From positions 1 through 64,000 of IMG/VR virus record IMGVR_UViG_3300035670_000089: a DNA stretch of 64,000 nt, one strand, 5' to 3'. A model generated the notes under the pieces. It worked only from the letters and a program-made list of their open reading frames with translations, was not told the DNA's origin and searched no databases. Origin of the DNA: a virus. The position numbers and the translations under genes were made by a program. Below, in pieces: positions 29,424 through 62,520 of this stretch (its first letter is position 1; the number at the start of each line of letters is the position of its first letter).

Positions 29424-29921
29424 ATGTCAGTAAATGCACTAGTTCTGTTAAGTACAATATCTCTTACTTTAGGAGTCGCCATGCCGATAAAAACAGAAGC
29501 GTTAGTGACGAGGGTAATAGATGGAGACACCATAGTGGTTAACTACGAAAAACAAAACAAAAAAACGAATGAGTTAAAGGTTAGGTTAGCCTGCATAGAC
29601 GCGGCGGAAATAAAACAACCGAAAGGGCTAGAGGCCAAAAAATATTTAGAACAAAGAGTATTGAAAAAGAAAATAAAATTACATATTTACGACTCAGATA
29701 TATACGGCAGAGCCATCGCAAAAGTCTATATAGGTGGAAAGTTAGTTAACCTAGACTTAGTACAGGCAGGATACGCCTGGGTATACGAGTCGTATCTAGA
29801 ACCCTGCAAAAAGGAGAAGGAAGCGTTAAGAAAAGGGCAGGCGGATGCACAAAAGAAAAAGTTAGGGATATGGAGTGCTAGAAAAGCTATAGCACCGTGG
29901 ATATGGCGACGGAAGCATTAG
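29424..29921 (+). CDS. Thermonuclease (SNase family) with signal/anchor sequence
   Basis: VIDGDT, VRLACIDAAE, DIYGRAIA, NLDLVQAGYAW, LGIW and PWIWR. Confidence 0.93.
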   Translation: MSVNALVLLSTISLTLGVAMPIKTEALVTRVIDGDTIVVNYEKQNKKTNELKVRLACIDAAEIKQPKGLEAKKYLEQRVLKKKIKLHIYDSDIYGRAIAKVYIGGKLVNLDLVQAGYAWVYESYLEPCKKEKEALRKGQADAQKKKLGIWSARKAIAPWIWRRKH

Positions 29922-32900
29922 AACTCTTGGGGTTGGAAACGACCCCATTGGTCTTTATTGTGGGAAGTTGAAGCATCCGCAGAAGACATCGAGGTTTCCA
30001 TAACTCCCATCTCCCACATAATAGGAGCAAAACCTCCCTGAGCCTTTTGGTAAAGCGCCGCCGCTTCATCATCCACTCTATTTATACGAATACTCGTCTG
30101 TTCAACTCCGCTCTCATCCTTATCTGTAATAACATCCGCGGTTCTCTTATACTCGGTTTGGACATAAGGAATATTGTTCGGGTCAGCCGAAGGATAGTTA
30201 GAAGCATTACCCGCATCAGACGGCGGCGGCACCGTTAATTTACCCTTAGGTCCTTTAGACTCCTCCACCCGCTTTTGGATATTCTTCTTAACCTTATCCA
30301 CAAACTGTTGCGCGTTTAGAATAACCTTTACATACTCCGCGGGTAACTTCGCCTCCGTCACAATAATACGGATACGTCTCTCAATCTCAGTTTTGACCTT
30401 CTCAGCCTCTCTCTGTATATCTATACCCTCATAGTCCTTAGGCTTGACTTCATACCCACTCTTCTCCTTACTACCCCATAAAACATCAGTTAATACACCT
30501 ACTAGTTCATTAACAATAGGAGATCTAGAACGAGAAGTAGTACCGCTCTGCCATAAAGGAGGTTTAGTATATGTAGGAGATTTTTCCTTCCGTTCTTTTA
30601 CGGGGTTACCTTCTCCCCATAGAGGAGTGCGGTTATTAACGTTACGCGGGGTATTGGTATCCCGGTCCCTCCATAAAGGCTCAACAGGTTTATTGACATT
30701 ATTAGGTTTCTCCTTAGAGGAGGAGCCAGGCGTATGAATACCCCATTGAGTCGTTGAAGGATTATCTCTATCCGTTTCGAGAATAGAGAAATCTTCAACG
30801 CGGGGTTTAGGTCCATCAGAAGGCTCAATAGCATTAGGTACACCCCTAACTGGATCATCCGGCCCTGTATGAATCCAACCATCAGGAGTTTGACCCGTGT
30901 ACCCCCCTGGGGACTTCCAATCTGCAGGAGCTTTACCGGTATACCCCCCAGGGGACTTCCACCCCTCAGGAGGTTTACCTGTATATCCTCCGGGGGATTT
31001 CCAATCTGCAGGAGGCTTACCTGTATATCCTCCGGGGGATTTCCAATCCGCGGGGGGTTTACCTGTGTACCCCCCAGGCGATTTCCAATCCGCGGGGGGT
31101 TTACCTGTCCATCCACCCTCTTTATTGGGAGGTCTACTCCCTGCTTGTCCCCATACGGGTCCACTCTTCTGTTCGGGACGACTACCTGCTTGTCCCCATA
31201 CGGGTCCTTGAGGTGGACCACTTCCTATTTCAGGTCTATGTCCAGGTTGACCCCATACCGGTGTCTTAATTTTGTATCTAGGGTCTAGTTGTACCGGTAG
31301 TTTAGTGTTGTATACAGAGTTAGGATCAGGTATAGCGGTAGAGTCTGTATAGATATCTTGAGGATCCCACTGCGCTACGATACGAGGTTTAGGGGTGGAC
31401 ATGACCGCAGACAACTCTTGAGAGTTAGGCACCATTTGTACCGGCATATCCGATACCCCTGCAGAGGCCATAAGATATTCACCCCTCTCTTCGGCTTTTA
31501 ATTTACTCTTTTGATTACGTTTAGGTTTCTCTTGTAAGATCTGTACTTCAAGTTTAGTAATCTTATTCTTCTTAATGAACTCATCTACAAGTTTAGTATG
31601 AGCTTTCTCTATAACACCTATACAACCAGCGGTACCGGCACCTCTACCTTCATCAGTATGTATACCTAAAGCAGACCGTTGAGTATTACCTTTAAAGAGG
31701 ATAGGGATAAATATACCCATCACAACGGGGTCAGTGGACATAAAGGATTGCCCAACAATATAATTACCGTCGGGTAAAGGAGCAAGTTTACCGGCGACAT
31801 GACGTTGCTTTGTGGTATCTGTTTGAGTACCTACCACTCCACTAACTGCCGGTACAGATCCCACGAGTTTATCTCCTTCCCACATCTCCAAGGCTAAAGG
31901 ATAAAAACCCGCGTATTTACCTTCACGAATTTGGTCCCCAGTACGCACTAATCGTAGGAAGCCCGTTTGGTTTTTAGGAGGTACTTTATTCTGAAAAGCT
32001 TTAGGTCTGACTAAACCTTCCCCTATCTCTCGGAACAGTATCTCGCCCTGCATTAAGAGATTTTCATAACTACTCCGGTTTAAAAGTGCATCGAAGTCTA
32101 CAGGACTAACCCGACGGTGCTTCCTCTTCGTACTCTCATCTCTTTGTCTTTTTTGTTGTCTATCGCGTGCATAAGCATCTCTGCCCTGTGTATAGATAAG
32201 ATTCTCAAGTTTATTGGAGGCGAGGAGAGTTTCGCCGTTGTAGACCGCTTCAGGAATTTCAGTAGTCGAAGTGACCTTACGTACGACATTGTCTTTCCTA
32301 GATTTATTTCGGTCAAAAGTTCGTTTAGCTTTACCCAATTCTCTCTCAACTTCTTGAGGCGAAAATTCAGCACCTAAAGCAGGTGGAGGAAAGAATATAT
32401 CTAACCCAGGAATATTTTCCGCAATCCGTCTTAAGACGCCGCGGTCGGAAGACTCTCGTACTCGAGGTTCTTGACCTTTAAAGAGTTTATGAACAACGTC
32501 GTAGTCGTACTCCCGGAACAATCTAAATACCGCGAATGTAAATTTACGCTCATCCTCAGTTAAACCATAATTCTCGGGCTTACCCCCAACTGTCTTAGAC
32601 GCATGAGTACCCATAGCGGAAGCGGACACTTCGTCTAAGAAACGTTCAAACACATACCGACTCGATTCCGCCGAGAAGTCCATCAATGCTTTAGTCTTAA
32701 GGTGATCCTTAACGCGGATGTCCGCCAACATCTCTATAAATTTAGTGGCTTCCGGTATACTCTCCTTACCGTACATACCTTGAACAGAACTAAGCGTGGA
32801 CAAGATAGCACTACTCACCGCGTTCTGTCTCTCTGGATCAGTGAGAACATCCATCAAAGTCTTGACGTTATATTCTTTTGCTACTGCTTCAGCGTATTTA

Positions 32901-35900
32901 CGAGGGTCTTGGATTTTAGTGAGTTTCTTACTACGTTGGTAGTTCTGGGCGTGTGTATACTCATGCACCACCGTATTGATGGTCTCCGGGATGTCAGCAG
33001 TATGGTTCACTCTCGGATTGATAACAATTTCGTTGTAGTAAGAACTGTAAGTCCCTGCACTATTAATTAGCTCATATTTAAGCTCTAGACCCGGAGTGTT
33101 ATAAAGTTTGTTAAGTCTCTTCTCCAACTTGTCCAAAGACTTACTGCTTACACCCTCTCGAGAGAATACAAGCTCTTCTAAAGCAGCCCCCGTCACCTGT
33201 CGTAAGAAGGGAATAGGAACCTGTTTTTGTTTTTTCGTTTTAGGGGTTCTAGCATCCGCTATAAGAATCGGCATCCCCATATCGGATACACCGGCAGACG
33301 CTACGAGTACTCCTCCATCAGTTTGAGCGCGGGCTAACGCTTTCGGTTCAGGACTGGGCGCATTAACGTACTTGTTATCTCTTTTTTCTTCTGGAAGTGT
33401 AGACTGTTTTGAAGAGGTATTTTTCTCTAGGTCTACAATAATAACAGGAACCTTATTATCCTTTATAAATTTGTAGACCTTATCCCGATTGGCTCTCTCC
33501 ACAATGCCAATACAACCTTCGGTGCCAGGTTTACCGTCATCCCAATGAATACCCAACGCACTTCTACTAGTAGGGAAATTAGGAGTGATCGGTAAAAATA
33601 ATCCACCTACATCCTTTTCATTACTACGGAAAGGAGTTCTAGCTAGGGTGTAGGAGCCATCGGGAAGAGGACGATGACTCCCAGCGACATCACGATTTCC
33701 TCTCTGATGCTCTGGACGCCCACTAACTGCGTCTACAGCACCTACCAACTTACCATTCTTCCACATCTGAAGAGAGTAAATAGGAGACCCATGTTGCGTC
33801 TTTCTATTGGTGGGTACTAAAGTCACCAAACTTGGGAACAACTTCGTGTCTAAGTCCAACCTCTGGTCGTATCGTCTTGTCTGCGTTTGAGATGTCTGTC
33901 GTGAATTTGTTCTCTGCTGCTGCTTAGGTTGTTGAGGTTTAGATCGTTGTTGCTTCTGTTTCTTAGATTGAGGGGTACTTAAAACGCGGTAAGACATATT
34001 TCTTATCTCACCCTGTTCGATAGGAGCTATCTTCTCAAAAGCCCCTGCAGATAAGTCAAACATTCTACGCGGAGTAAGCGGACCGTTATCGTTAACCCGT
34101 ACGACAACACTCTTTCCGTTATCGTCATTACGGATTTCTATCATCGTTCCGTAGGGGAACATCGGACGACCGTTTACCAATTTAGCCGCAACAGTCATAG
34201 CGGTGGGATCCATCTTCTCACCTGTGGCTGTGCCTTTACCAGCGAAGCCGTCTCCTCTACCGTAGTAGCTTGCTCTCTTATCAGTCTTTATCCAAGCAGG
34301 GCCGGAAGACTTCTGCTGTTTAGGTTGACTTTGAGGCGGTGTACTCTTACCCGGGGGTGAAGGAATTGGGGTTACTGGAATGTTAGGAGCAAAAGCTTCT
34401 TTAGGTCTACTCTGTTGAGACGCTGGAGCGGCATCTTGGAATCTATAGGTTCCAGGTTGCATACCAGCACCATGGAAAAATTCGTATACCGCTTCCCCTT
34501 TTGCGTTATATCCAATAATTTGTTGTCCCGAACGACCTTGTTTACCTACAGTGAAATATCCTCCGGGAATAACCGGAATAATGTAGTTAACGTTGGCACC
34601 CCCATCTGTACTGGATGTTTTAGCCTTACCGGTATACCTAGCTTTACCTTTAATAGGGACATAAAAGTCCATCGCAAAACGAGAACTATGTCCCCTATGT
34701 GCAACCTGCGCCGCGCGTATTTTCCTTAATTTCTCTTTAAAACTATCGGTAGAGCGGTAGACCACACCTCCTACAGCCCTATTAGAAAATTCTATTCTTC
34801 TCCCTTCCGCTTCATAACCTCGGGCAACCGCGTCCATTAACGCGACTCTCTGTTCATCAGACACCCCACCATAAATCTTAAAGTCAATATGATAAGGGTC
34901 ACCTCCGCCCCCGTGTATAGTCTTCATTGGAGTTTTATACGCGGAGCCATTACTTACTAAACCACCAACTGCTCCTCTAGAAGTACTGACCGAAGTCTGT
35001 TCCGCCATACGCTGAGATTGAGAACCACCTTTAGCAGTGTTCTTAGGAGCAGGGGGCGGAGTTTGAGGTTGTTTAACCTCTACGTTGGGCTTACCTCCTA
35101 GAAGAACAAAACCCACGTAAGGTCTAGAGTCGGTGTGAGCACCATTAATAATAGTCTCGAAGTGAAGGTGCGGTCCGGTAGAACCACCCGTAGATCCAAC
35201 TTGACCTATAGCAGAGCCTGCCTTCAAGGTAGACCCTACTTTTAAGAAAGCTTGGCCTCGCATATGCATGACTCTAAACTTCATGCCATTACCCGCATCT
35301 AATTCAGCCCAATACCCAGCGCCGCCCTCTTGATACCCTACTTTAGTGACAACCGTATCTTTCGTGAAGGAGATAAACATCCCATCGACGCCTTTCCCGC
35401 CAACTGAAGCAACATCTACCCCGCGGTGCATCTTCCGCTTACCGGATATAGGATGAACCCGCATCCCATACCCCGAATTAATATCTGAAGCTTTAACCTG
35501 GGTAGCTCCTTTTACTTGTACTCCGTCGGGAGAAGCTTCACTCCACATACCCCCTTTATCAAACACAAAATTCCCGCCACTCTCGGCATACCGCTGTCGA
35601 GTCGCGATTAAAGCCTCGATAGACTTCTCATAGGAGGTACTATGTCTATTTCCTCCAACACTGTCGTAAGCGCCCCGTCCGGATTTACCGTATTCAATCG
35701 AGGCCCACTCTAAAGCTAAAGCTTTCTGTGCCGCAACGATATCATCACTCTGTCCCGTTATATACTTCCAGATAGCGGGGCGTTTCCATTGGAGTAAAGA
35801 TACCGCCAACCGCATTTGAGTGTCTTCATTAAACGGAGTATTCGGGTCTATACCCGTATTCTTAACCGCCCCGGCTAAAGTAGACGGAATAAATTGATAC

Positions 35901-38900
35901 CGCCCTACCGCGAATACTTTTCCTTTACTCTGCGCCTCCATTATCTCCGCTAAAGTGGTCTCTTGTACCCTCTTACCGAAGACAGACTCCCAACTACTAT
36001 TCATAGAGTCTCCGGCTTTGCCTCGGTTAAAGGAACCCCAGTCTCCCTCTCCCGCCGAAATCATATTCAAGATGTCTGCAAACGTACCCCGGACATCCCC
36101 TTGGATAAGACCCATGAAGTCATTACCTGCTCGGAAAGCCGCTTGCATTCCGCCCGCAATCCGATCCGCTACCCCCTTAAAGAGTTTGGTCTTCGCTTCG
36201 TAAATAAATCTACTTGCTCCTGTTACCGCTTTCCACGCTAATCCGAAGAAGTCGAGAATACTCCGCCACGGCCCTTTCTCTCCTTTCAGTTTGTCCTCAT
36301 ATAACTTATACTCCTCCGCAAATGTAGACTTCTGCTTCTTCGCGTCTTGAGCCGCTTTATTTACCTTCTCTTTATCCTTACTACTCTTCTCCTCCTTCTC
36401 CAACTTGTTGACCTTACTAGGAAGTTTTACCTTAGTCTCTTTCTGTAATGAGGTCTCTTTAGACAACACCCCAGATAATAATTGCAGCGCGGGGTCGTTC
36501 GCCGGAGTATAAATAGTCTTATCCCCCAGCGCACCAGAAGTAACTCCGCTTCCTACTCCACTAACTCCTCCACCCACCGAACTAAGAGTTCTACCGCGTT
36601 GGGTCTGTACCCGTAGTCCAGACTGTTCTACAACCTTACGAGAAGTAAACGAGTTTCTCTTTTCAGCTTCAGTACTACGAAGGACAGCCAGAGAACCTAC
36701 ATACATCGCGGTGCCCACACCGAAACCCATCGAGAGCATTTGCTTCTGCTCTTCCCAGTCTTTCTGTTCCTCCGCCGTCCGTTTCCTCTTTAACCACCAC
36801 TTCTCATACGCCTTACCCCCAACATCCAAGGCTTGATTAGTAAGACTATAGATTCCATAAGCCATCAAAGCCACACTACCTAAAGTCCCTAAGGTAGCTA
36901 TAGCCGCGGCGCTTGAAGCGGCCATAGCGCCTAACCCCGCCATGGCAGCCCCAAAGGCTAAGCCTCCGAGAATACTCATACCAAAGTTCGTCGCTGTTTC
37001 TCCTGCGGACTTCCCACTTAATATATCGTCCGCTAACTGTAAACCGGTACCGAGAAGAGCCATAGCGCCGCCTTTACCTTTAAGGCCAAACTTCCCGGTG
37101 TCAGTCTTACCTACTCCAAACGTCCCTTCGACAATACCGCGCATACTAAACTCAGCGCGTAGTCCTTGCCCAAATCGTCCGAAGAATCCAGCTTGGCCTC
37201 CAACACCTACATTCCCAAACCGCGTATCCAGCTTGGAACCCCAAGTCTCTAACTTACCGCTACCTTCCCATACTCCTCTCCCTAAATTACTAGCAACCGT
37301 CTTTACTCCACTAACAGCTTTATCCGCCGCGCCTTTAGTCTTATCGATAATGGTGTCTAAGATAAGACCCTGGATATCTATACCCTGCGCGGTACCTCTA
37401 CGAACGTTACTCCACCGCTCTCTACGCCCCGCTGCTTTAGATTGTTTTTGTACCCGTACAAATCCCCCCGGAGCTTTCTTTCTTTGTGGGGGTTTAAAGC
37501 CCATTTCTACTTGTACGTCGAAGCCCGCGGCTTTCATCATGCGGTTATATGCAGCTTCAAAACCTTTATCCGGAGCTTCATGTGTATGAAGTCCTTTACC
37601 CACACTATTAACAGGGAACTCTTCATAAACCTCAGCCGCCGCGTTATACGCGCTAAGTTCATCTATAAAGCCGCCTGTAAGTTTACGGAACAGCCGGTCA
37701 TCTTCAATACTTAATTGCCCAGTCTCGGCTCTCTCCGCTAATTTATTTATTTGGGAGACTACATCCTGATTAGGTCTAGTGTAATTAGTTCCCTCTACCG
37801 TTTGTACGCCTAGAACCCCAACCGCATAGTGGTGGGAAGAAGATAGAGCGCCTCTATATACGTATTGCCGGCGCTGTTTACTCTCTAGACTTACTTCAAT
37901 AAAATCACTACGCAACTTATTTGTAAGAAGCGTCTCTTTTAGAAAACTTACATACTCTTTAGCGCTATCAAAGAAATCTGTTTTAGAGGTATACCTAGTG
38001 TTATACGCGTGAGCCTGTTCATGCACAAGCGTGTCTAGAATATCCAACGAAGTATCACCACGCGCGAGATTAACACTAACTACATGTCTTCGTGGGTCAT
38101 AGTACCCTTTATATGTAGATTTAGGGTCGCGTACAATCTCTAAAGTTGGAGCCTTCTCATGGGGGAACATCCGCTCAATCTGTTCGTTTGCGAATCTTAT
38201 CTCCTCCTCCTGCATAAAGGAATCTCCGCGGAAAACCATATCTGGCCTTTCCTCAAAATAGAACGAGGGTCCATTCCATAACCTATCCCACAACCCAACT
38301 TTTTGTTTTCTAACCCCGGCATTGCTTAAATCTACTCTTTGAGTGGCGGCCTCCCCTTTCAAGTTTTGAATATCGTTAGATTTTTGTAACGCGTTTAGCC
38401 TCTCATTGATATAATCCGCTTGAGCTAACTCTCTCGCAACTTTAGCTTCAACTTCTCCTGTGTTAGGCACTAAATCTGTATTTAAGGTCTCGTTGGCGCT
38501 CTGTCTTAATTTAGCCTCACGTTCTCTCAGAGAATCAAAACCATCTTCCCAAAGAAGGTCGTCATCTACAGACTCAATAAATATTCTGGCGCTGCGGGAT
38601 GCATCAGCCCCCGCGCGTAAGTCTTGGAGCATCCCAGCTTTACCCGCATAGACTAAATTGTGGTCTATAGGGCGTAAAGATTCAGAGGGAGGTTTAGAAG
38701 TCTCTGCATCCGGCTTAGATTGCGGCGTTGGTTTAGTTGGGGGTAAGGGCGGAGGTGTTGGTGTTGGTTTAGTTGGAGGTAGAGGTGGAGGTGTTGGTTT
38801 AGATGATTCCACCGTGGGTTTAGATACGGGTCCGGGACTCTCGGCTGTCGGTGTAGTCGGAGTTGGGGACTTACCGGAGCGTAAGTCTTCAAGTTCTTTA

Positions 38901-41900
38901 TGTTTTGCCGCAAGCTCCGCTTCCTTACGCGCAATCTCCTCTTCCCGATCTTTAAATTTATCGTGAGAACTCTTCTGCTTCTCTCTATATTTCGCCTCAA
39001 TCATCTCCTCTTCAGATAATGCCGGAGTAGGAGGAGTAGGAGGAGTAGGAGGAGTAAGAGGAGTCGGAGGTTTAGATTCTAATTCTGCTCGTTTGCGAGC
39101 GGCTTCGGCTTCAACGGCTTCTCTCTGTTGTTGCGTCTCATTTTGAAGCTGTCTCTTCTTAGCTTTAGCTTCATCTTCTATTTGTTTTAGCTCTGGAGGA
39201 ATAATCTGCTCCTTCGCCGCTATAACCGCCGCGCGTTCAGCTACTATACCTAAACGCTCGTTCTTGCTTAAAGTTCGCCCCGTCCTCTTGTCTTTAGACA
39301 ACCTTAAAGTTAAGTCTTGCTCTATAAGAGTAAGTTGCTCGTAACTATATTGCCCACTTGTATACTTATCTATTTGGTCCGAACGGTATTGTAATACCGC
39401 CGGCGCAAATGACGGTTTAGACGACGTAGTCTGAGGTTTAGGGGTAGGCTTCGGAGTAGGTTTAGGAGTAGGTTTAGGAGTAGGGGCAGGGGTAGGTTTA
39501 GGGGTAGGTTTAGGGGTAGGTTTAGGGGGTTCCCCCAAAATCGTTTTAGCGGTTTCTACTCGTTCTTCCGCCGCTTCCTCGTTTAACTTTTGGGTATTCT
39601 CTGCAGAAGTCTCCGGGGGTTGTGGTTTAGGTGTGGGTTTAGGTGTAGGTTTAGCTGGCTCTACCGGTTCCGCTGTTTCAACCGGGGTCTTCGTTTCTTC
39701 AGGAGATTGAGGTGTAGCGCCCATCTCTTCCTTAATATTTGTCTTAGCTTTCTCCTGAGTTTGCTTTAGGTCTCTCTCTAACTTCCTATTCCAGAGCGAC
39801 CGCCCTAACTTATACGCACCGTAAAGTCCACCCGCCAGAAGAGCGTGTCCCCCAATGGTGGCGTATAACTCATCATGATTCTTCTCTTTATTAAATAAGT
39901 AAGCTTCCTGCGAGATAACAGAACCTAAATAGTTACCGATATACCCGCCGATAATACCGCCGACTATCGCTCCCGGAAATCCTCCAAGTAATCCTCCAAT
40001 GACCGCCCCCACACCCGCGCCCACAAGCGCACCGGTTAAACCACCTTTACTAGCGGAGTCAGCGTATTTGACGTACTCCGCCTGCGAAGTGATATTAGCG
40101 CGCTGTAATCGCTGCCAATATCTCTGTCCTTGACCAAACCCACCAGATACTTCAGACGCAAAGGAACCAATTATGTTTAGCGCGGTACCTATACGGGGTA
40201 CCACACTTAACCCTGTAAATATCCCCGTGACGTTACGTTTGTTGATGTCTACAATTTCTTGGCGGGGACTGGTTTTGTAATGTCGAAGGTTTTCCGCGGC
40301 TTGAGAATTACTGTGCAGAGTAAATGGAGCGGCTACAACCGCAATCGCGGCGTCAAAAGCTCTACTCGTTACAATTCTGAATATCTGTCCGCTTAAGGAA
40401 CGCCCCGCTACTTCTTTAGTAGCTTCCCTACTCGCCGCTCGGTACAGTTCCTTCTGGAACATTCTATTCCGTGCTGCCTTTGAAAAAGCTTGTCTACCCC
40501 CACCGCGCGCCATTCTCTCTGCGGTAAGTCTCGCGGCTTCTCTATACACCCGCGCCTGAGTACTTCGTACCGAGGATTTTACGCCCTCTTCGACTAAATC
40601 GTCTCCAGCGCTAGCTACACCTCTATAAAGAGAAGAGTACCGAGTACCTTTTAAACGGGAGGGACTAACTCTTGAAGCGTAAAGCCTGGGTAGTCTTGAT
40701 GTTTTTGCCGACGCCGGACTAAACCTTAAAGAATCTCCCTTTAAGAAAGGAGACCGCATAAATAAGTCTCTGGTCTTATTCACTTCGTTAAGATATCTCC
40801 AACCAGAGACCGCCCCGGTAGTTACACCGTAACCTATACCCGCGACAGCTAACCCGAAGACTCCAAACTCCACAACGTCTCTAGTTGTAACTTGGGACTC
40901 ATCCGCCGTTCCTTCATCCGCATAGGCTGAGGGGGGCATCAGCATATCCCCTATACCCGGTAAAGCAGATATAGTTTTACCTATTAAAGACCGACGTCGG
41001 GTACCCCGCTCGGAATACATTCTATCCCCCAACCAATTCCCTACGAATTCCCCAACACTATTTTGGAGAATCATCGTTGTGGAGATCTGTTTAGCCCAAC
41101 TAAGGTTTATCTTACCTCGGGTGACTCCACTGAGAATCAGACTACCTAGGTTTACAGATGCACCTATAGCGGCGCCCGCTACATCTCTACTCGCGGCTCT
41201 ATATTCTTGAATATCACTATAGCCGCCCAGACTATTAAGTCTCCACATAGAAAAAGACATTAGAGCGGTGTCTACCCCTGTGGACATCAATGCATTTATA
41301 GTTCCTCTACCTAAACTCCTAAGAGGTCTAAAAGCAGAACTGTCATACGCTTTCTTAGCCGCCATTGGTAGCGACTCGGATAAGAAGGTTGTAAGTCCAT
41401 TCCTAAAAGGTTGACTCCCGAATAAGAATTCGTGTACCCCTCCCCATATTTTATGGAATAGAGATTGTTGTGGCCGAGGGGGTAACGGTGTAGTCGGGGA
41501 GGTTGGTGGAATATTAGGCGCAGAACCTCTTCTAAATGTAAAGTTCGCAAGAGAACTTACAAGACCGCCGATTCCTTTACTAATACCCTTCAGTATTGGT
41601 AAGCCCACAGTCCGGAGTCCAAAAGGATCGAATAAGTCTTCCACTTCACGGAAGATAATATTGTTCTGCCGAACCGGAACATAATTCGGATTAAGGATAT
41701 TCCGAGCGTCTTGTACAATTCCCCTAAAGGAGAATTTAAAACCATACCGTATAGCGTCGGTGGCTCCATAAGCTCCTCCACCGATAAACTGCCACTTTCT
41801 TCTTTCGTCTCTATACTCTTCAGTGGTTTGGTCTTCGTCTTTATGTAGGAAATTATATAAGAATCCTGTTAAGAAATACCCTTTCAGAAAACCCGTACCC

Positions 41901-44900
41901 GCACCCAACGCCATACGAGAGGACGCTCTACCAATACGAACACGCTCCGGGGCTAAGTCTTTAAATGTGCGCCCAGCCTCTCTGGCCTTAGCAGCCTCTC
42001 GGGCATAGTTCATCATTCTTCTTTCATACCCGCGGCGAATACCGCCCTTGATGCCCATATACGTCACCGATGTAGCACCCGAAACCCCCAAGGATAATTT
42101 TGTATAATCCTCGTCGGACATACCGGTGGCGGACGTAACTAAAGACCTCCCGTACTGCATTAAGCCAAAGGTAGCCCCTCCGACTAATGCTCCTTTGCCT
42201 AAATATTCAAATACAAAAGGAAGAGCAGATCTGCCTATCCCTTTATATTTCAGCATGTCATTTAACTGAGCATTATTTATATTGACCAACTCTTCCGCAG
42301 TCAATCCACTAAGTTCCTCAAACTTCTTAATGTTTTGGTTAGCGAAATAAGTGTCTACTACATCTAACCCAGACTTAATCTGTCTGGTTAACGGACCCAT
42401 AAACGAATTGGCAAAACTAGCCGCCCCAGACATTCCCCAAATAAAGGGGTCAATCTGTCGATACTTACGTCTCTCCCTATCCGATAGAGAGTTACTAAAT
42501 ATAGCGGTGAGAACCCCGTAAGTAATCAGTCCGGTTAGGGCTCCCCGGGATACTCTATTATTCCCAATGCCCGACAGCACTCCTTTAAAGGCATCTCCAA
42601 TTCTTTCGCCGGTGGATACAATAGCCCCACCCATTCGCATAATGCCAGAGGTGTCTATAGATGCCCCTTTAAAGGGGGCAGTAATATTACCGTATATAGT
42701 GGACGCTGTGTCTCTAAGAACATTAGGAGTCTCTCGAATAGCGTAAGCCGTGTTATCCGCCACCTTCGCTAGAGTATAGGATGTAGAACCTACACTCTCC
42801 TGCGGTATTTTATTAGTTACATACGAACCAACCACCGCCGTCCCTATAGAGCCAAACGGAGTTTCGTTTATACGTTGTCGGTAGGGTCTACCATGCAACA
42901 TATCTCCTAATTGATTCCGTCTCAATGCGGCTAAGGTTAACAGTTGAGACATATACGGCTTAGGTCCAAAAGGAGCTAAGACCCGGAATGCATATCCTTT
43001 TGTATCGAAATAACGCTGGTAGGTTGTGTATTCGCCAAAGCCATTAATCCTCCCCTGTAGGAATGGATTAACTAGTTCATCGTCGAGGCCCGCTTGTGTA
43101 GAAGCTGCGCGGGCATAACGTTCTCTATTCTTCTCGGCGATATAATCGCTGATGTCTCTCTCATTCGTCTCCCAAGGTACGGGACCTTGGAAGGTTATCA
43201 ACCCTTTACTATACTTCGTGTCTCTATTCCACCAAGCTTCGCTGGTCTCAGGAAGTACAGCGTTCGTTATATAGGCAAGAGGAGTCCCCTCAAACTTACG
43301 GTACAAAGAGGTAATAGTAGGGTCTAGCGCTCTAGCAGGTAATCCTAAGACTTGCAACGTCTCATTCAACACCGGGACTCCGACTAAAGTATTAATAATC
43401 GGAGCCAGGACACGGTTGGCGAGAGGTTTAAATATATGTCGGTCTAAATGCCGAACGCCCTTAGTAATACTATCTGTGATTCTTCCTTCATTAAACTTCT
43501 GGTCAAGGAAATAACCACCGAGGATAGCCCCCGTTGCTACCCAACCAGCAGGGGTAAACATACTCTTCGCGGCGAAGGAGAGTAATGTCATACCTATACC
43601 GGTCTCAATTATCATATTCGCCGCGGCTTCCGACGCCCTCATTCTCTCCATCGGAGATTTCTCCGACGCGGCCTGAGTAACCATACTGTAGACTGGGTAG
43701 AACGTAGCGACCTCCATCGCTTTACCCAGGAGTCCAAAGGCTCCGGTAGCGGCTTCTCGAAGACTACCGAGATACCCTACTCTAGCGACTCTATCTGTAG
43801 TACTCATACTAAATAGAGAAGCATTCCGATTATTTAAAAGCCGCCGTGCAATTTCCCGTTGTTCCCTCGGGGATATTTTCTTACGGGGAAGACGTTGAGG
43901 TACATGAGACGCCCCCTCGTCTTGTATCGCGGAATTTAGGATAGCATCCTGTATATCCAGAATCCGCTCTGCAATATTCTGAATAATGTTGTACTTATTC
44001 TGCGGCGTAACATGCGTGGAGTTTATCTCGTCAGTAATAAGAGAGCTAAGTTTCCCAAACTTATCCTCAATAAGATCGTCCACTGCTGCATCTATACCTG
44101 TAGCAGACGAACTGTCAATAAAGAATTCTAGGAGGCGTTTCGTAGAACCGTCGTTAACGTCGATAGAAGCATCCAGGAGTATATCTCGTAGCTCCCGCTT
44201 AATCCTACCGGTGAGGTCTTCAACCTCTTTTCCAATATCGACTCCCGGTTTTTTCTTACTCTCGACGAGAGTATCTATCTGTTTTACAAACTCACTCTCT
44301 CTATCAGGGAGGTCCTCGACATAAGAGGACAACCTACTGTTTAAATCTACAAACTGATCTTGTATCTTACGAGCGTTTTGAGTACTAACCGTTAAAGTTT
44401 CGCTACCTAACCGCAATCTACGCGCACCTTTAGTTTGGCGTTGCCGACCCTGAACTTGGAAGTTATCCCCAGAACTTACAATAGTAAAGTTAGAGTTTTG
44501 TATACTCGCAATCCGTTCAGCGACTTTCTCCTCCATACCTCGAATCGTTCCACCTTCCCCAAAAGCGGCAAACGCGGACACCGTTGTCATCAATGAGAAT
44601 GTCGTCGCGGCGGTAACCGCAGTAAATGTCAAAGCGGTGGTCAAGGTCATAATTACCGTAGACCCTACAAAAGGCACCGTCTTCTGTTCTACTTCCCCCT
44701 TAGAGTTTGTCGAACTATACTCCCTCAGTTTGGGGAAGTAAGCCATCTTTAAGGGCTCAATGAAATAACTGAAGATATTTCCCCGTTGGGCTTGTTTACG
44801 AGATTCCATAAGACCTGCGAAGTCCATCGTAGGTTTCTCAAAACTCCCTGTGGTTAAGAACCTTCCCCCCACATTAAAGGTGTTAAGAAATAAATCCAGT

Positions 44901-47900
44901 ACTCCAGGTTGTTGAGATTCCGCGCCGGGTACATATTGAAATATTCCATCCAGGTCGTACTTAGTCCAATCCACACTCTTCAGACCTTCGACGAGAACAT
45001 CCCCCACCTTAAGGTTTTCGATACGCCCCGAGCGCGCCATCTCTAAGAAGTAGTCTATAAACAGTTCAGAACCCCGCTGTCTAGCGGCATGTTGGGCGTA
45101 GAATTCTCTAACCTCTGCCGCCATGGCTAATTCTCTACTAGAGCCACCTAAAGCTTGGACTTCGCTAGCGGTAGTTTTACCGTATAAACGAGATGGAGTT
45201 TTCTTAGGAGTAGCTCCTCGAATCTTTGCCACCGCTTTATCGGAGTATTCTCCTTTAGTAGAGAGGATAGCAGAAAGGACTTTAGCGTCATCAGCGGAGA
45301 TGGACTCCATGTTCATGTATACCTTGGACTGGGATATATCCGCCCCCGGAGATTGAGCCTGTAGATACGCACGCCAGGTCTCAGTTCCTTCCGACATACC
45401 CCAAGCACCGAAGATATTCGCAAAAGGATTAGGGTTGTCTTTATACATCCCCGTCATCTTCCGAATATCGCCGAACAACCCCAAGGTAAATAAATTAAGA
45501 AGATTAGGGATAAAGTTCTCTTTATTCGCGGGTGCGAATGGACTAGAGTACCCTAGAGCTCTTCTAGCCGCACTCATTCGTTTGAAGTCTGAAGAACTTT
45601 CAGTACCACTAAAGACTTTAAGAGGTCCCTCAAAGAATCCTCTTACGAATCTATTCCCTTCTCCTTCTGCTCTACTGTCGGAGAACATGGTGTTATAAAC
45701 GAGTCCGGCTAGACCAACTAGAGCCCCAGCTCTCACTATAGACATCCCTGCCAAACGCATTCTTATAGCGTTAGAGCGGACTAGTTTAGGTTCCGCATAT
45801 CTCAAAACATCGTCTACCTGTTGGAATAACTCCTTACCTTTCCCGGGTAGTATTTTACCGGCTTCAACTTCATTAAAAGTCCCGCGGGCATATCTATTTA
45901 CCAACTCAGGCCATTTCTCCGCATCTAAGTCTCTGAGTACTGAGTCTCCATGTGCCGCCTTCGCCAGTAGATTTAGAGCTTCATCCTGATAAGTAGCGTA
46001 CATTTGACGCTGTGTCCCTCTTAAACTAAAGGGACTTATTCCGTATGAAGGGGGTGTATCTACAAAAGATTTAGCGGAATCAAAGACCCGGCCTGAGTAA
46101 AGAGCAGTAGAGATAACGGTAGTCAAACCTACCGCCGCACCGATTCTATACTCATTCGCTTGACGTAAAGCCTCGTAGGGATTCGCCGTAGAGCCGACAT
46201 TACTCAACCCCGCCGCTTCGTAATAAGAACCTAAAGAACTGTATTCTGAACCTTTACCGACAGCCCCAAACCCTATAGCCGCTGCGAGTAGTAGTGGAGT
46301 CATTTTGCGGAAACTAGGTCCTAAGAACCGAGCGTCCTTAACGTCGTAGAATCGAGTTGATGTCCCAATAGAGCGCATCAATAGATTCGGCATAACAGTT
46401 TGAGGAACTTGAGACCACCGCGCTAGTTTCTCGTACTGCTCAACTCCTAATTGGAGGTAACCTAGTGCGCTTCTTGCGCCTTCTAGTTCCTTCTTAACCG
46501 AAGGAATACTACTTAAATGTGCCCAAGCACCACTTTGCTGTACACCCTGCCATATATTCCCGGCTACTCCGGCTGCTCCAACAAAGACTAGAGAACGAGT
46601 GAAGTACGAGTCTTTATCAAAGACCGGGGTAAAACTATCAAATAGATTACCTTGTAGATATGACTCTCTAGACTCGCGGGCTAACTCCTTAGTATCTCTA
46701 GTATCCTCTATACCCCCGGGATAGAGTCTCTGATACCGTTTCTCCGCCACCTGTTCCGCTCGAGTAGTTACAGAATTAATTCGTAAAGATAGAGGATAAC
46801 TAGGAATAGAACCCATCCCTAAAATAGGTAGGAACTGGAAGCCGGCGCTGAAAGCGTATTTATTCCCCTGAGGGTCTGTTTTACTCACCAGGGTTATTTG
46901 AAAGATTGGGTTAGGTTGTTGATGGGCCCAGGTATACCCAACACGTTCTTTACCTTTATCCGCCTGTAACGCCCGGTCCGCCAACAGCCCTAACAGCGCA
47001 ATATTAGCTAAACCACTCTTAGGTATATAACGAGTATTGAGAATATCTTGGTCTTCAACGTCTTCCCCCGTACGCTCTTTAGCTAATTTTTTATATTTAT
47101 CCACAGTGCGGCGGATAGAAGAGGACATAGTGGTGGAGAATACAATATCCTCATCGGTCTTCAATCCTCCGTCATCCCCGTAGTCTTTCTTGAACACATT
47201 AGCAAGAGCCGCGGCGGTATTAAAACCACCTTGAAGGACAAACAAGGAAGCAATAGCTCCCACGGTGGCCATACCAAAGCTAAAGCGAGTAACATTGCGC
47301 CCCTTCGTAAAGCGAGTGTTTATACTCTCTAACTGCTGCACTACAGCTTTATTCGATTCATCATTAAATAACTTCTTAAACTCAGCGTCACTACGAGCAA
47401 AGGTAGATAGCCTGTCGTCTATCCGTAAAGAATAGAACATCTTACCCGAGGCTACACCAGCACCTAACACTGTGGGTACTTTTAGCCAATCTGGGACTAC
47501 CCCGGTGTACTGCACTTGCGAAAAATCAGCACTGCCGTCTTTAACGGTGTCCTTCGCATTTATACCGTATAGCATTTGGGATATCAAATCTTGACCCCGG
47601 TTCTGCATTAGGTATTTATCTAACACACGGTCTACCGCTAATACAGCACCCACGGAAGCTAAAGCTTTTCTTCCGATAGCCGCGGCATGTACTGATTTGA
47701 TGGTGTTACTAAGACCCTTATGTCGATAAGCGGAGAGTTGTTGGTGTCTTGAGAATAGATCGTCGTACTCAGTCAATACCTGCTGTATTCTATTCAAAGC
47801 AGGACTACTCGCGGTATCGTCGGCTAGTTGAGATAATAGATCACTATTACTCATTATCGCGGCGATAGCCGGTTCTTGATGTCTTAACTGTTTCCCTAAG

Positions 47901-50900
47901 TGGAGTATTTCGCCAGACTCTTTGAGGGTTTTAACTAAACCGTGCTCGTACATCCGGCGGGCGGTCAACGTTATATTCGACGATAACTCGATTAGTCCTT
48001 GGAAACCCGGGCCCAACGCCCCCTTTAAGGAGAGTACCTGATTGGGTAGAGGACCTTGATTCGCTTCCACTAAGTCCGGTGTCCACGTTCCCGTAATCCC
48101 TCTAGCTTTTCTTACTCCCGGAAGATAATATATAGGATTGAACGCGATATATCTCGAGATATCATCCAAGTGCCGCGCGATATCCTCTAAACGTTGTTTC
48201 CCGAAGTTCATGGGTTCAATAGAGGAGAAGGTCTCCGACTTATACCTGATATATATAGGTTGAGACAAGACTTCTCGGAGGCCTTTTACAGAGTTCTCAA
48301 AACTAAGTTGGGTCTCTACATCCCCTACAATCGATATAGACCGTAAGATCGGTTCAATAACATTCTCAAAGTTACTGTCGTCGAGTAGACGTAGTCTATT
48401 TACTACGTTTAAAGAACCGTATTGATTCGGAGCGGGGTCTCTATATAAACCAGACTCTAAGTCCATAACCCCGTCAGTAACCCCAAAGGTCTGTTTTTTA
48501 ATGCGGTGGACTTCTTCTGCTATCTCCGTCGTCGCAACATCTAACTCTCCTTTCTTGACGGCATAGTTCCCTATACGATCTATTTCCCTCCGGAAAGTCT
48601 CCACACCCTCATCGGCGGGGTCTCCAGATTCCATTAAATTCTTTACAAACTGCAACGCAGTTTTATTATCCGAGGCATCGATAAACTCCTTAACTGCCCC
48701 GGCATCATTCATCTTACCGAGGATGGAGTATTCGAGCATAGCGTCAATTACGTTAGACCCGATTAAACCCTTGGCCGTAAATTTATCTGCAACAGCATTA
48801 AGAGAGTAGAACAAATCGCGGTGTTGCATCGGGAGTTGTCTTGCTCTAGCCCAACCAAAGAAACCCTTGTTAGTGGACGAGGACATAACTCTCTCCATAC
48901 CGGCAGTCTCTAACTCCGCTTTAAAGATTGAGAGAGAGTGACTAAATCCAAAGTAGAAGAGTAAGGCGTTAGTAGTAGCACTAGCCGTAGAGTAGGAGGA
49001 CGATATGAGAGTCTCGAAGAATCCCCTCTTCTCTTTACTCTCGTATTGAGATTTATGTAATCCTTGAGGGTCGTCCTCCAAAGCTTTACCTTTTTCCGCA
49101 GCGTAAAGCTGCTTCATCGTGTAATACCCTGTCAAATAATCTAAGGTACGCCCAAAGAGAGTTAGACCTGTACCCACCAAGCCGCGGTCTTTCTCGTAAG
49201 CCTCGGGGAATTTCTCGTTTATAAGTGCGCCCCATCCTCGTAGAGTACCCGGGCTAAGTTGTCTATCTAGAGAAGCATAAAGGGCATAGCGGAATTTATC
49301 CCCAGGCTCAGTGACATCATCTTTAGTTTTACCGGTAAGGCTATATATATAATCTTGGTATGGAGTGGGGCGTTCTCCTTTAAACATCGAGAAGAACCTA
49401 TCGTCTATAGATGTAGGAAGATAAATCGTCCCGGTGGTCTCTCTTGATATTGTGTCCCCCATATCGGATTTATCGGTATACTTAGGCCTAAATAATGTGG
49501 AGAACAGTCCTCTATCATACGCAGTGGTTTTTGAGGATAGTTGTCGCCCAGAGAACAGTGGGAAGTTCCTCTCGTTAAGTTCCTTATTCTTAGTATTTAA
49601 ATCAGGGTCAGGAGTATCCGTAGGCAATAAGGTCTTAGTTATACCTTGCGCTTGCCACCTCTCAATTTCTTTAATACCAGCTTTCGAGATATTAGGGTCG
49701 CGTATAACCACCCCAATCTCGGTCACAAAGTTATTACTACTTTTACTGAAGTTGTGGGAAGTGATATAGGACCAGACATCGCTAAATATAGATTTAGCGT
49801 GAAGCATGACGTTAGCCTGCTCATCGGTTAACCTCACTTCTATCTTCGGACTTGAGTTCACCAAAGACATTAGTAAGTCCGATTGTATCTCTGGACTAGT
49901 AGCGGCGGTTTTCCCCGCTGGATTATTAGACACAATTACTATCTTATTTATATCCGGGTCTTTACTCTTAGCAACCACCTCTTTAAATAACTCTTTATCG
50001 GTAGCCGCGAATAGAGTCATATATAAGTTACCTTTGGCAGACTGCACTAGCTCTTTATGTCTCTGCTGCGATTCTCCACCTTTACCGCCAATAATTACAT
50101 TAGGAAGATTCGGCGGAGTCTCCTTAGGGTCTTGAGCCGATTTGTTTATATACTGTATAGCCTGCTTTATCTGCTTAACGACTGCATTATCTTCTATAAC
50201 AGCGGAGAAGTTCAACTGTTTCGTCGTATTACTTTTTGTTTCCTGGGCTTCACCTAAGTTAGCAGTGGATATTAAGGCGACTTCATCAGAACGAGAGGTA
50301 GCCGCCGCTTTAGCGTGTCCGTGAGTATTGTCACCCTGAGTTCTACTCTCATAAGTTTTTCCCGCGTATACACCCCTTATATTAGACCGTTCGGTTATCC
50401 TACCGCTAAGCATCCGACCTAAAGTAGGGGTATCCATAATTGCTAAAGACGCCGCAGTGGCAGCAGCGGCTCCCGCTAGTAGACCCGCTGCCCGAGCTAC
50501 TCTATTTTTACCTAAGTTATACCCAACTACAGCACCGCCTGCAGCCGCTAAAACAGTAGGGACATAATTATCATTAAGGGGAGTAACATCCGAGTAGACG
50601 TTGAGTTTACCTTTTAGGCCGTAGTCCTCTATATTAGCGCCCAAACTAACCGACATAAAGTTGCCGCTCTTTATATTTTCGGGAGAAGGGTCTTCAGCCA
50701 AGGAGTTTAATCTACGGTAAAGTCTATCCTCAAGACGTCGACTCTGCGTCGACATACTATAGTACGAACCGATTAAGCGGTCTTTCTTGTTATGCACTTT
50801 ATCTAAGAAAGAAGAATAACCCTCTTCAGTCTTAGAACCAGAATAGAGAGTTACCTCCGACAATCCGGAGTAGGTAATACCTTCTTCAGTTCTGTTTACC

Positions 50901-50931: not shown

Positions 50932-51558
50932 CTAATACCGGATACGAGTTACGCCCTCTAAGTTATCTAACTTATACTCCACCAAACGGTCTAAGGTTGC
51001 GGCGGGTTGATAATTCACACTTATCGTTGTCCCTACCGCGGGGGTACTGAGCCACGTTACTCTATTCCACTCCGAGATAAAATCACTGGCGGGCGAGACA
51101 TTATTTACCTGCCATACAAATATCGGGAGCGTTAAATACTGCTGCTCCTCTTCCACTACAAACGTATAGTTAAGAATCTTAGGGATAGGGGGGACTAACC
51201 AATGTTGGGTATCAATAGGGATCTGACTCCCTTGGCGGAAGTACTCCACAATATACCTCCCCTTCGGATAGTATAAATCCGAGGGTACTAACTGATAACG
51301 GAAGACTCCGTTCTCCGGTAATTTAATGGTGACCGAGTCCGAGAGGTGTTGTTGTAGACCCCGTTGACTGCTCCGCGGCGGCGTAATCCGCATAAAGTAC
51401 TTTGGTTTATACTGCCCTCTTCTCTTATGATTTACATCCTGCTCTTCTGAATCCCTTAAAGCACTACGAAAATCAATGGCTACCGGCGTATACTTCTGCA
51501 TTAAAGTATTCGCGCCTAAAGTATAACCAGAATAAAAGGGGTCTAAGTAATAAGTCAT
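50932..51558 (-). CDS. Hypothetical protein, probably structural
   Basis: Lies between the terminase and the giant gene; beta-rich. Confidence 0.6.
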   Translation of the reverse strand: MTYYLDPFYSGYTLGANTLMQKYTPVAIDFRSALRDSEEQDVNHKRRGQYKPKYFMRITPPRSSQRGLQQHLSDSVTIKLPENGVFRYQLVPSDLYYPKGRYIVEYFRQGSQIPIDTQHWLVPPIPKILNYTFVVEEEQQYLTLPIFVWQVNNVSPASDFISEWNRVTWLSTPAVGTTISVNYQPAATLDRLVEYKLDNLEGVTRIRY

Positions 51559-61806: not shown

Positions 61807-62520
61807 CTAACCCACAATAGAAGAGTCATTACCGATACCGATATCCACGGCGCTAGGATCATAAGGGTTAGATAATACGGAGTCGTTAGCTGATCCCCAA
61901 AGAGGATCATTCCCTCCAAAAGGATCATCCGCGGGTGTAACCACATCGCCCCATAGTGGATCATTCTCTCCTCCATCTCCCCAGAGAGGTTCTTCCCCAG
62001 GCTCGAAGTTAGGTAAAGTATCTGTTCCGCCAGAACCGTCAGTAGTATCCTGACCGTCCCCGTCTCCATCATCCCCTCCGTTGTCGTTTAAACTCTTCGT
62101 TAAAGCCGCCACCCATCTCTCTAATACAGGAATCTCAGACTCGACATGTACATCCCTAACCTGGGATAAAAACCCGTTGACCCGACCGGTCTGTTCTTCA
62201 CGCGCACCATCAACCCGAGCTTTATTAAAATTACTGTCGTACTCAGAGTCCTTCAATATATGCCTACTTAACCCCGCCGCCGCCCATCTATCAGCTTCAG
62301 AGCCTCTTGGGACTCTGCTATAATTGAGTACGTTAATATTAAAATAATCCTCAACAAGATTATTAGAAAGTTGTTTAACCTGAGCTTGAGGGTCAGCGGG
62401 AGGAGTACCTGTCTCAGTAACTTGAGAGTTAGAATGATTAGACAAAGCCTGCAATTCCTCTCGAGAAATTGTAGACTTATCGATGTTGTCCGTAGTAGCG
62501 ACATAGGCAGAATAAGTCAA
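61807..62520 (-). CDS. Hypothetical protein with acidic C-terminal D/E-PLWG repeats
   Basis: ORF overlaps the upstream stop; EPLWGD, DPLWGD, DPFGG and DPLWGS. Confidence 0.6.
   Translation of the reverse strand: MTYSAYVATTDNIDKSTISREELQALSNHSNSQVTETGTPPADPQAQVKQLSNNLVEDYFNINVLNYSRVPRGSEADRWAAAGLSRHILKDSEYDSNFNKARVDGAREEQTGRVNGFLSQVRDVHVESEIPVLERWVAALTKSLNDNGGDDGDGDGQDTTDGSGGTDTLPNFEPGEEPLWGDGGENDPLWGDVVTPADDPFGGNDPLWGSANDSVLSNPYDPSAVDIGIGNDSSIVG

Follow-up and report, generated by a model that had tools for sequence, protein, structure and literature searches.

Several very large proteins are known to be injected from phage virions, among them N4 vRNAP (3500 amino acids, aa), P1 DarB (2255 aa), T7 gp16 (1318 aa) and phiKZ gp181 (2237 aa), and both T7 gp16 and phiKZ gp181 carry a lytic transglycosylase. 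Muralytic tape measure proteins (TMPs), such as T5 pb2, TM4 Tmp and the TMPs of staphylococcal phages, are long, helical, Gly-rich and hydrophobic, with an M23 peptidase and/or a transglycosylase toward the C-terminus. T5 pb2 is ejected first and aids infection, and membrane insertion by ejected phage proteins is known for T5 pb2 and T7 gp15/16. TM4 Tmp is also ejected first and aids infection of thick-walled cells (PMC1796659), while the baseplate hub of the Anabaena phage A-1(L) carries lysozyme, endoglucanase and peptidase domains, the last two of which lyse Anabaena cells (PMC10966104). Here we describe a 6999-aa open reading frame (ORF), P0001 and hereafter “the giant”, found in a 64,000-nucleotide (nt) stretch of viral DNA (positions 1 to 64,000 of IMG/VR record IMGVR_UViG_3300035670_000089; “the window”). 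The giant belongs to a family in which a conserved N-terminal region is followed by a variable C-terminal cassette, predicted in this case to be rich in wall enzymes, and we favour, with moderate confidence, the reading that it travels in the virion, leaves through the contractile tail at infection and breaks through the host envelope.

The window makes up the first 64 kb of a record of 97,570 bp with a CheckV completeness of 66%, and in its ORF list the reading frame of the giant is uninterrupted across 21 kb. A preliminary description, made from the letters alone, had proposed exactly this single ORF, and had itself raised the possibility of an assembly chimera. That the source is one incomplete metagenomic contig would indeed be compatible with an artefact, either a chimera or several genes read through as one. 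However, colinear giants are found in assemblies from IMG, ENA, Logan and NCBI, and three of them (P0011, P0012 and P0016) carry the body, the Gly-rich block with transmembrane (TM)-like helices, the C-terminal modules and the Trp/Pro repeats in one common order. Because the body and the later blocks are colinear in independent assemblies, a chimera is ruled out for practical purposes, an artefact of any kind is vanishingly unlikely, and the gene is real.

An exhaustive HMMER search with aa 430-1629 of the giant against 1.84 billion cluster representatives returned 29 representatives, almost all of 3.2-7.9 thousand aa and the largest of 7866 aa, which are colinear with the giant over aa ~200-2870. 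The conserved body is colinear in all 29 and in 14 of the 15 IMG/VR viral loci that we retrieved with the family alignment. The size and diversity of the giant had been called exceptional, a statement that needs tempering since the giant falls within a set of at least 29 clusters of similarly large proteins; to our knowledge, lengths of 3-8 thousand aa would place the whole family among the largest phage proteins known. A word-based protein search gave a single relative, P0004, which is of similar length, and no shorter one. Searches against phages returned no match for megablast of the gene, only the PLD domain of a Microcoleus phage for tblastn of aa 1-3000, and no match for tblastn of aa 3001-5000.

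Furthermore, the family profile aligned by hhalign with gp120 of Ma-LMM01 (aa 546-669 on gp120 aa 530-640, probability 97.3%, E 1.9e-11), and this match in the signature region of the body indicates that the Ma-LMM01-type giants are distant members of the family. A giant ORF occupies the same slot, after TerL (the large terminase gene) and one or more small ORFs, in Ma-LMM01 (gp118, gp119, gp120), in MaMV-DH01 (ORF141-143) and in the Microcoleus phage My-WqHQDG (WOL31340, 4151 aa), with gp120 and ORF143 measuring 2898-2899 aa; each of these giants is annotated as hypothetical. Across the 15 loci, homologues of p208 (30-53% identical) lie directly upstream of the giant in every case, and where the flank reaches, the conserved upstream genes include TerL (13/15), p862 (10/15), the baseplate J gene (9/15) and p288 (6/15). 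The gene order is also kept in a 96%-complete relative of 190 kb (G002). The TerL, capsid, sheath and tube proteins are 24-36% identical to their Ma-LMM01 counterparts, and by its genes the virus, which is uncultured and cyanophage-like, is a contractile-tailed phage. The best explanation of these observations is that Ma-LMM01-related (Fukuivirus-like) cyanomyophages carry the family among their core late genes. Relatives among Microcystis and Microcoleus phages, and module matches to an Anabaena phage, make a host among the filamentous cyanobacteria plausible. In the literature that we searched we found no description of the family and no paper assigning it a function.

While the body stays colinear among giants with detectable similarity, the content and order of the cassette vary. 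The C-terminus of the giant at locus L016 (20900-25099, plus strand) holds Polysacc_deac_1, Amidase_2, Phage_lysozyme and Endonuclease_NS, a non-specific DNA/RNA nuclease domain, and that at locus L010 (15372-19571, plus strand) combines M23 with a beta-lactamase/S11-like (DD-carboxypeptidase-like) domain. Among the other complete relatives, two have M23 only at their end and three have nothing that Pfam recognises. This architecture of a conserved N-terminal region and an exchangeable C-terminal cassette places the giants in a polymorphic multi-effector class, as opposed to a homology family.

In the giant itself, sequence comparison supports about nine catalytic-type modules, most of them predicted to be aimed at peptidoglycan (Table 1). 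All the landmarks noticed in the preliminary description lie where it had put them, with domain support that varies in strength. The M23 peptidase (Pfam match at aa 5163-5263, 53.5 bits against a cut-off of 28.7, with both zinc motifs; M23 chains in PDB, E 2e-12) and the RlpA-like DPBB (DPBB_1, 55.2 bits against 28.8; PDB 4avr, E 5.8e-11; 8kea_A residues 286-371, E 1.4e-9) bear out their first assignment. Two regions described as His/Cys domains proved to be YkuD domains: the first exceeds the Pfam cut-off (26.2 bits against 23.4), the second is its 44%-identical paralogue (E 2e-26), and their motifs, IHWDD...TEGCIG and IHTDE...TAGCIG, contain the conserved His and the Cys of GC[IV] intact. 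The pair is thus predicted to have the L,D-transpeptidase fold, which does not imply a reaction type (transpeptidase, carboxypeptidase or endopeptidase). The second zincin has its HEYTH motif in place and matches the SprT-like family at 27.8 bits (cut-off 25.6) when searched as a long piece and at 24.0 bits as a short piece, with DUF6782 at 23.9 bits. The Trp/Pro repeats are likewise present, as 5.4 copies of a 42-nt unit together with six P[LV]WG/Q/R motifs.

For three further units the first assignment stands in part. The first zincin has the expected HEQAH motif and is related to the second in a pairwise comparison (E 0.003), but its SprT-like Pfam match is weak (E 0.17). The lysozyme-like domain, in which the AGEG, GRYQF and EWAS motifs are conserved, matches phrog_37890 (E 3e-28) and phrog_30077 (E 3e-24), both of unknown function, and a profile of three sequences matches residues 153-257 of the A-1(L) hub, its lysozyme domain (E 0.016); Pfam SLT, however, reaches only E 0.076, below the cut-off, and a single-sequence PDB search gave no match. 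The possible second peptidase, which we call the His unit, is kept at 34-51% identity in eight or more giants and is modelled by AlphaFold2 (AF2) with a core pLDDT above 90, so that its fold is confident, but its peptidase nature is less so: there was no match in Pfam or Foldseek and no usable lead in the ESM Atlas, and the fold matches given by VIA-align, to the A-1(L) hub peptidase domain (residues 736-856, Z 3.9) and to LytM/M23 domains (Z 3-3.9), are weak. A word-based protein search found no stand-alone homologue of the His unit, which so far occurs only inside giants.

Several clues bear on where such a protein may act. The 6999 residues include only two Cys, Cys5802 and Cys6432, which are the predicted catalytic residues of the two YkuD domains; ~34 would be expected at the rate of the virion module. 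Cys content is 1.8% in the early plus-strand genes, 1.3% in TerL, 0.49% in the virion module, and 0.03% and 0% in the two giants of this genome (the second is described below); most relatives of the giant have no Cys in 4-8 thousand aa. The M23 domain shares 38% identity with Ma-LMM01 gp95, whose gene adjoins that of a baseplate protein. Among solved structures, a single protein, the A-1(L) baseplate hub gp15 (8KEA), gives the best match for the DPBB, for the profile of the lysozyme-like unit and, weakly, for the His unit, each in one of the domains introduced above. These matches to the hub and to gp95 suggest that enzymes borne on the baseplate in other cyanomyophages are here strung on the C-terminus of the giant. 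Finally, the P[LV]WG motif, for which composition predicts about one chance match per whole proteome, occurs six times in the C-terminal region of the giant, three times in p237, once in p449, both of the tail/baseplate module, and is absent from every other real ORF of the genome. A docking or wall-binding motif common to the three proteins is one possible reading.

The place of the gene at the close of the late structural operon, the extreme Cys depletion and the kinship of the modules with baseplate-borne lysins make an ejected envelope-breaching machine, as had been proposed from the sequence, the best fit; virion residence, ejection and the membrane insertion and order of action considered below are inferred. 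The many peptidoglycan hydrolase modules could also, together with the TM-like helices and with the automatic names of the relatives in their source databases (murein hydrolase or muramidase), be read as a non-virion protein, a late membrane-anchored super-lysin or wall-remodelling factory that acts from within, for lysis or for cell-to-cell passage in the filament. We consider this improbable, as lysis would leave the conserved 2,600-aa body unexplained, the gene holds a fixed slot in the structural operon next to TerL, the Cys depletion resembles that of virion proteins, and the modules match baseplate lysins, not endolysins.

The N-terminal part of the giant begins with a PLD-like head. Residues 289-420 match Pfam PLDc_2 with 40.8 bits (cut-off 27; E 2.4e-10), and the two half-sites in one chain are provided by HAK motifs, at aa 201-203 and, in the canonical form HxKx4Dx6TSxN, at aa 373-375, in agreement with the PLD pair first noticed; PLDc_2 is also found in the Microcoleus phage giant and in P0004. 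The body that follows has dozens of invariant or near-invariant Gly, Pro, Asp, Arg, Gln, Tyr and His positions across the family. An AF2 model of aa 430-1629 built from 16 sequences has ~75% helix, in helices of 15-50 residues, at low confidence (pLDDT 51.7), and was too poor for a fold search. The more than 3000 aa of helical, TM-like sequence in the preliminary description are therefore borne out in part, by the mostly helical model and by 13 hydrophobic 19-mers in the giant, with the reserve that the model is of low confidence. A PHROG search with body segments from 16 members gave zero matches, as did a PDB sequence search with aa 1-3600. Downstream, aa 2870-4480 are specific to the lineage of this giant: phmmer found no counterpart of aa 2871-3740 in the relatives, the Gly-zipper Pfam matches stay below the cut-off, and the Pro-rich hinge is present as described, with short tandem arrays. 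The Gly-rich/TM-like block beyond it is 43-54% identical in P0011, P0012, P0013 and P0016. The 13 hydrophobic/Gly-zipper segments would fit membrane insertion.

Next we consider whether the giant is the tail tape measure proper, on the model of T5 pb2 and the mycobacteriophage TMPs taken to an extreme, so that its helical body would fill the tube lumen and set the length of the tail while the C-terminal enzymes sit at the hub and exit first. We found no convincing TMP between tube and baseplate here, in Ma-LMM01 or in the 96%-complete relative, and no PhageMin_Tail (PF10145) match in the five relatives' genomes searched. The predicted mostly helical body with Gly-rich hydrophobic segments, the C-terminal location of the muralytic domains, where a TMP meets the hub, and the PLWG motifs common to the giant and baseplate-module proteins all agree with this view, and PHROGs includes TMP families with profiles of up to 5002 positions and an M23 domain (phrog_23188). 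However, the body was called tape-measure-like in the preliminary description, and on two counts this is not supported. The gene closes the operon behind TerL and p208 (in G002 and in 13 of the 15 loci, those with TerL in the flank) rather than lying between tube and hub, and the matches to PHROG TMP families (phrog_23188 and phrog_10030) cover M23 only, while the body hits no PHROG.

Other observations also speak against a ruler. Dozens of invariant polar residues in the body across at least 30 family members would be unusual for one, and the upstream p208 looks beta-rich rather than chaperone-like. In a 2006 isolation study a tail of the Ma-LMM01 group reportedly measured 209 nm. A ruler of 2,600-3,300 aa at 1.5 Å per residue, the approximate ratio in A-1(L) (about 689 aa for 1045 Å; PMC10966104), would give a tail of 400-500 nm, against 260 nm in MaMV-DH01 with its 2899-aa giant. 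Tail lengths of 209-260 nm in the Ma-LMM01 group, where the giant has 2898 aa, are thus at odds with a ruler that uses the whole chain. In addition, p472 and p449 lie in the canonical position and are possible small TMP candidates; tblastn of both against phages gave no match. We tentatively keep a tape-measure role as a view rather less likely than not, despite the position and the motif-rich body, because we found no other clear TMP in the 96%-complete relative.

The genome encodes a second giant ORF, P0003, of 3747 aa (G000:C1:85395-96638, plus strand), which lies outside the window. It has zero Cys and no Pfam or PDB match, and it contains a motif, LGDYDGDSFQ, reminiscent of the loop that binds metal in two-barrel RNA polymerases. 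In the 96%-complete relative, the same place is occupied by a Cys-free homologue of 3211 aa. A PLD head common to both giants was considered and rejected, as BLAST gave E 0.36, hhalign nothing and Pfam no match in P0003.

This second giant, a putative virion RNA polymerase, enters another version of events, in which both proteins would be packaged inside the capsid and injected after the DNA channel opens, as are N4 vRNAP, P1 DarB and T7 gp14-16. The gene of the giant beside TerL and head-type neighbours, the presence of the second Cys-free giant with its DYDGD motif and its conservation in relatives, the non-specific nuclease at the end of one relative, which would be most sensible inside the cell, and the encoded Mu-like prohead protease, which could process such a cargo, are all in keeping with it. 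Yet wall cutters would be needed before DNA entry, hence at the tail tip, Pfam, PHROGs and PDB searches revealed no homology to known internal or ejection proteins, and BLAST and hhalign found no targeting module common to both giants. We therefore regard capsid residence as unlikely, a shade below residence in the tail lumen. Both are narrower forms of the ejected envelope-breacher, and the moderate confidence that we place in the latter applies to this umbrella as a whole.

Under the hypothesis of an ejected envelope-breacher, the chain would leave the particle after sheath contraction. The conserved N-terminal body of ~2,600 aa would be the common delivery or conduit part, which keeps the chain translocation-competent and probably inserts into host membranes through its Gly-zipper helices, together with the Gly-rich/TM-like block, while the PLD head may act on phospholipid or nucleic acid. 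The Pro-rich hinge could be a flexible spacer that spans the wall. Of the enzymes, the lytic-transglycosylase-like unit and the DPBB would cut glycan strands, and the M23 domain, the hub-peptidase-like His unit and the two YkuD domains would cut the peptide stems and cross-links of the thick cyanobacterial sacculus. The SprT-like zincins may attack proteins of the wall and outer layers or process the chain itself. The C-terminal cassette is the exchangeable part.

A number of points weigh against this hypothesis. That any family member resides in virions is our inference and not a proteomic or structural observation, and the catalysis of every module is a prediction from its motifs, with the identities of the His unit and the lytic-transglycosylase-like unit resting on weak scores. 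The body matches no entry in Pfam, PHROG or PDB and no ejection-protein or TMP family, and its AF2 model is poor (pLDDT 52). At ~770 kDa per copy, the giant would be hard to fit in the tail lumen. Finally, gp120 and ORF143 are unannotated, and the Ma-LMM01-group literature that we searched, which did not extend to the 2008 Ma-LMM01 genome paper, gives them no function.

The late operon on the minus strand starts with a Mu-type portal, a Mu-like protease, the major capsid protein and a 994-aa sheath protein, followed by a 334-aa homologue of Ma-LMM01 gp92 in the tube position, a 795-aa homologue of gp93 and several small and mid-size proteins. It ends with baseplate J, p862, p288, TerL (with intein and HNH), p208 and, as its last gene, the giant. 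For p208 there was no match in Pfam or PHROG, and the ESM Atlas gave only weak leads, none usable; it looks like a beta-sandwich protein, not a helical chaperone. Its constant place, immediately upstream of the giant in each of the 15 loci, makes p208 a candidate partner or adaptor of the giant. The intein load varies between lineages, as the TerL homologues of the relatives range from ~600 to ~1470 aa.

Table 1. Position and main characteristics of the giant, its parts and neighbouring genes. Coordinates refer to the window unless another sequence is named; aa numbers refer to the giant.
Feature	Coordinates	Strand	Characteristics
Giant ORF P0001	29918..50917	-	6999 aa, ATG start
PLD-like domain, two HxK half-sites	49643..50350	-	aa ~190-425; Pfam PLDc_2 and motifs
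Conserved family body	42308..49630	-	aa ~430-2870; predicted mostly helical, hydrophobic/Gly-rich segments, invariant polar motifs
Signature motif region	48911..49282	-	aa 546-669; D..LS.PG.G..N...Y..G.G....GR.LD..TG.Y ... GFFE ... YFG..H; invariant columns
Lineage-specific Gly-rich/hydrophobic region	39698..42307	-	aa 2871-3740; glycine zipper aa ~3620-3670
Pro/Thr/Lys-rich hinge, coiled acidic/basic stretches	38693..39697	-	aa 3741-4075; 16% Pro, short tandem repeats
Zincin 1, SprT-like paralogue of zincin 2 (predicted)	37568..38230	-	HEQAH aa 4299-4303 = window 38009-38023
Gly-rich block with three TM-like helices	36638..37468	-	aa 4484-4760; hydrophobic 19-mers aa 4645, 4671, 4728
Lysozyme-like/lytic-transglycosylase-like domain	35573..36100	-	aa 4940-5115; AGEG...GRYQF...EWAS
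M23 metallopeptidase (predicted)	35108..35482	-	aa 5146-5270; HRGVD at aa 5164, HLH at aa 5250
His unit, compact alpha/beta domain	34418..34975	-	aa 5315-5500 (span to 5535)
RlpA-like DPBB	34001..34276	-	aa 5548-5639; Pfam DPBB_1
YkuD (L,D-transpeptidase-fold) domain 1	33380..33775	-	aa 5715-5846; predicted catalytic Cys5802
Zincin 2, SprT-like/DUF6782	32618..33136	-	aa ~5928-6100; HEYTH aa 5985-5989
YkuD domain 2	31484..31894	-	aa 6342-6478; predicted catalytic Cys6432
Trp/Pro repeat region	30518..31369	-	aa ~6517-6800; 14-aa unit (GGYTGKPPADWKSP) and six P[LV]W[GQR] motifs
p208, beta-rich conserved gene	50932..51558	-	directly upstream of the giant; stop 14 nt before its ATG
Large terminase with intein	51611..54559	-	Intein_splicing and HNH_3; conserved upstream neighbour
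p237, tail/baseplate-module protein	61807-62520	-	three P[LV]WG motifs
p449, tail/baseplate-module protein	G000:C1:64595-65944	-	one P[LV]WG motif

Giants occupy 10-20% of the coding capacity of their genomes and are a core gene, without assigned function, of the lineage to which Ma-LMM01 belongs, the phage that serves as the reference for bloom-forming Microcystis. If they are ejected, they would show how a myovirus can bear a complete set of wall-degrading enzymes on a single chain and swap this set from host to host, and the family would be a source of cyanobacterial-wall enzymes for bloom-control enzybiotics. Ejection would also pose a problem of packaging and translocation, that of a 770-kDa chain passing through a 4-nm tube, for which the Ma-LMM01 and MaMV phages are cultivable.

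Functionally, the giant is nearest to the muralytic TMPs, the injected giant proteins and the enzyme-laden A-1(L) hub, and its only sequence link to the injected giants and the hub is through enzyme domains. Its closest counterparts by slot, gp120, ORF143 and the My-WqHQDG giant, are Gly-rich and hydrophobic like the giant, but they are shorter and have no wall enzymes that Pfam detects; in Ma-LMM01 the M23 domain resides in a separate baseplate-module gene, gp95. They are tied to the giant at different points, gp120 through the homologous signature motif (its HSK motif was seen by eye only, and it has no Pfam match) and the My-WqHQDG giant through a PLD-like head that aligns with that of the giant (BLAST E 1e-15), with Pfam PLDc_2 in both. 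Compared with the muralytic TMPs, the giant is three to six times longer and has 8-9 predicted catalytic modules instead of 1-2, its gene lies outside the tail module, and its motif-rich body matches no TMP family. With N4 vRNAP, DarB, gp16 and gp181 it has no sequence relation, and it carries far more modules than any of them. In A-1(L), the three domains that best match giant modules in PDB (lysozyme, “endoglucanase” or DPBB, and peptidase, with weak matches for the lytic-transglycosylase-like and peptidase units) decorate an 899-aa hub barrel, whereas here the enzymes are lined up at the C-terminus of a giant non-hub protein.

In architecture, the giants resemble polymorphic toxins and MARTX-type multi-effector proteins, which also join a conserved N-terminal delivery region to a swapped C-terminal effector cassette. 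The giants differ in being phage-encoded, in carrying mostly peptidoglycan enzymes and in having no CPD-type autoprocessing domain, self-cleavage by the zincins being only an idea. Speculatively, and with more doubt than attaches to either of the proposed virion locations, the giants may be the phage counterpart of such toxins: a Cys-free body would thread the contractile tail and deliver lineage-specific effectors (wall enzymes, a PLD and, in some relatives, a nuclease) to the periplasm and the cell, the zincins would possibly free the enzymes, and a single chain may take the place of the tape measure as well as of the hub lysins of ordinary myophages.

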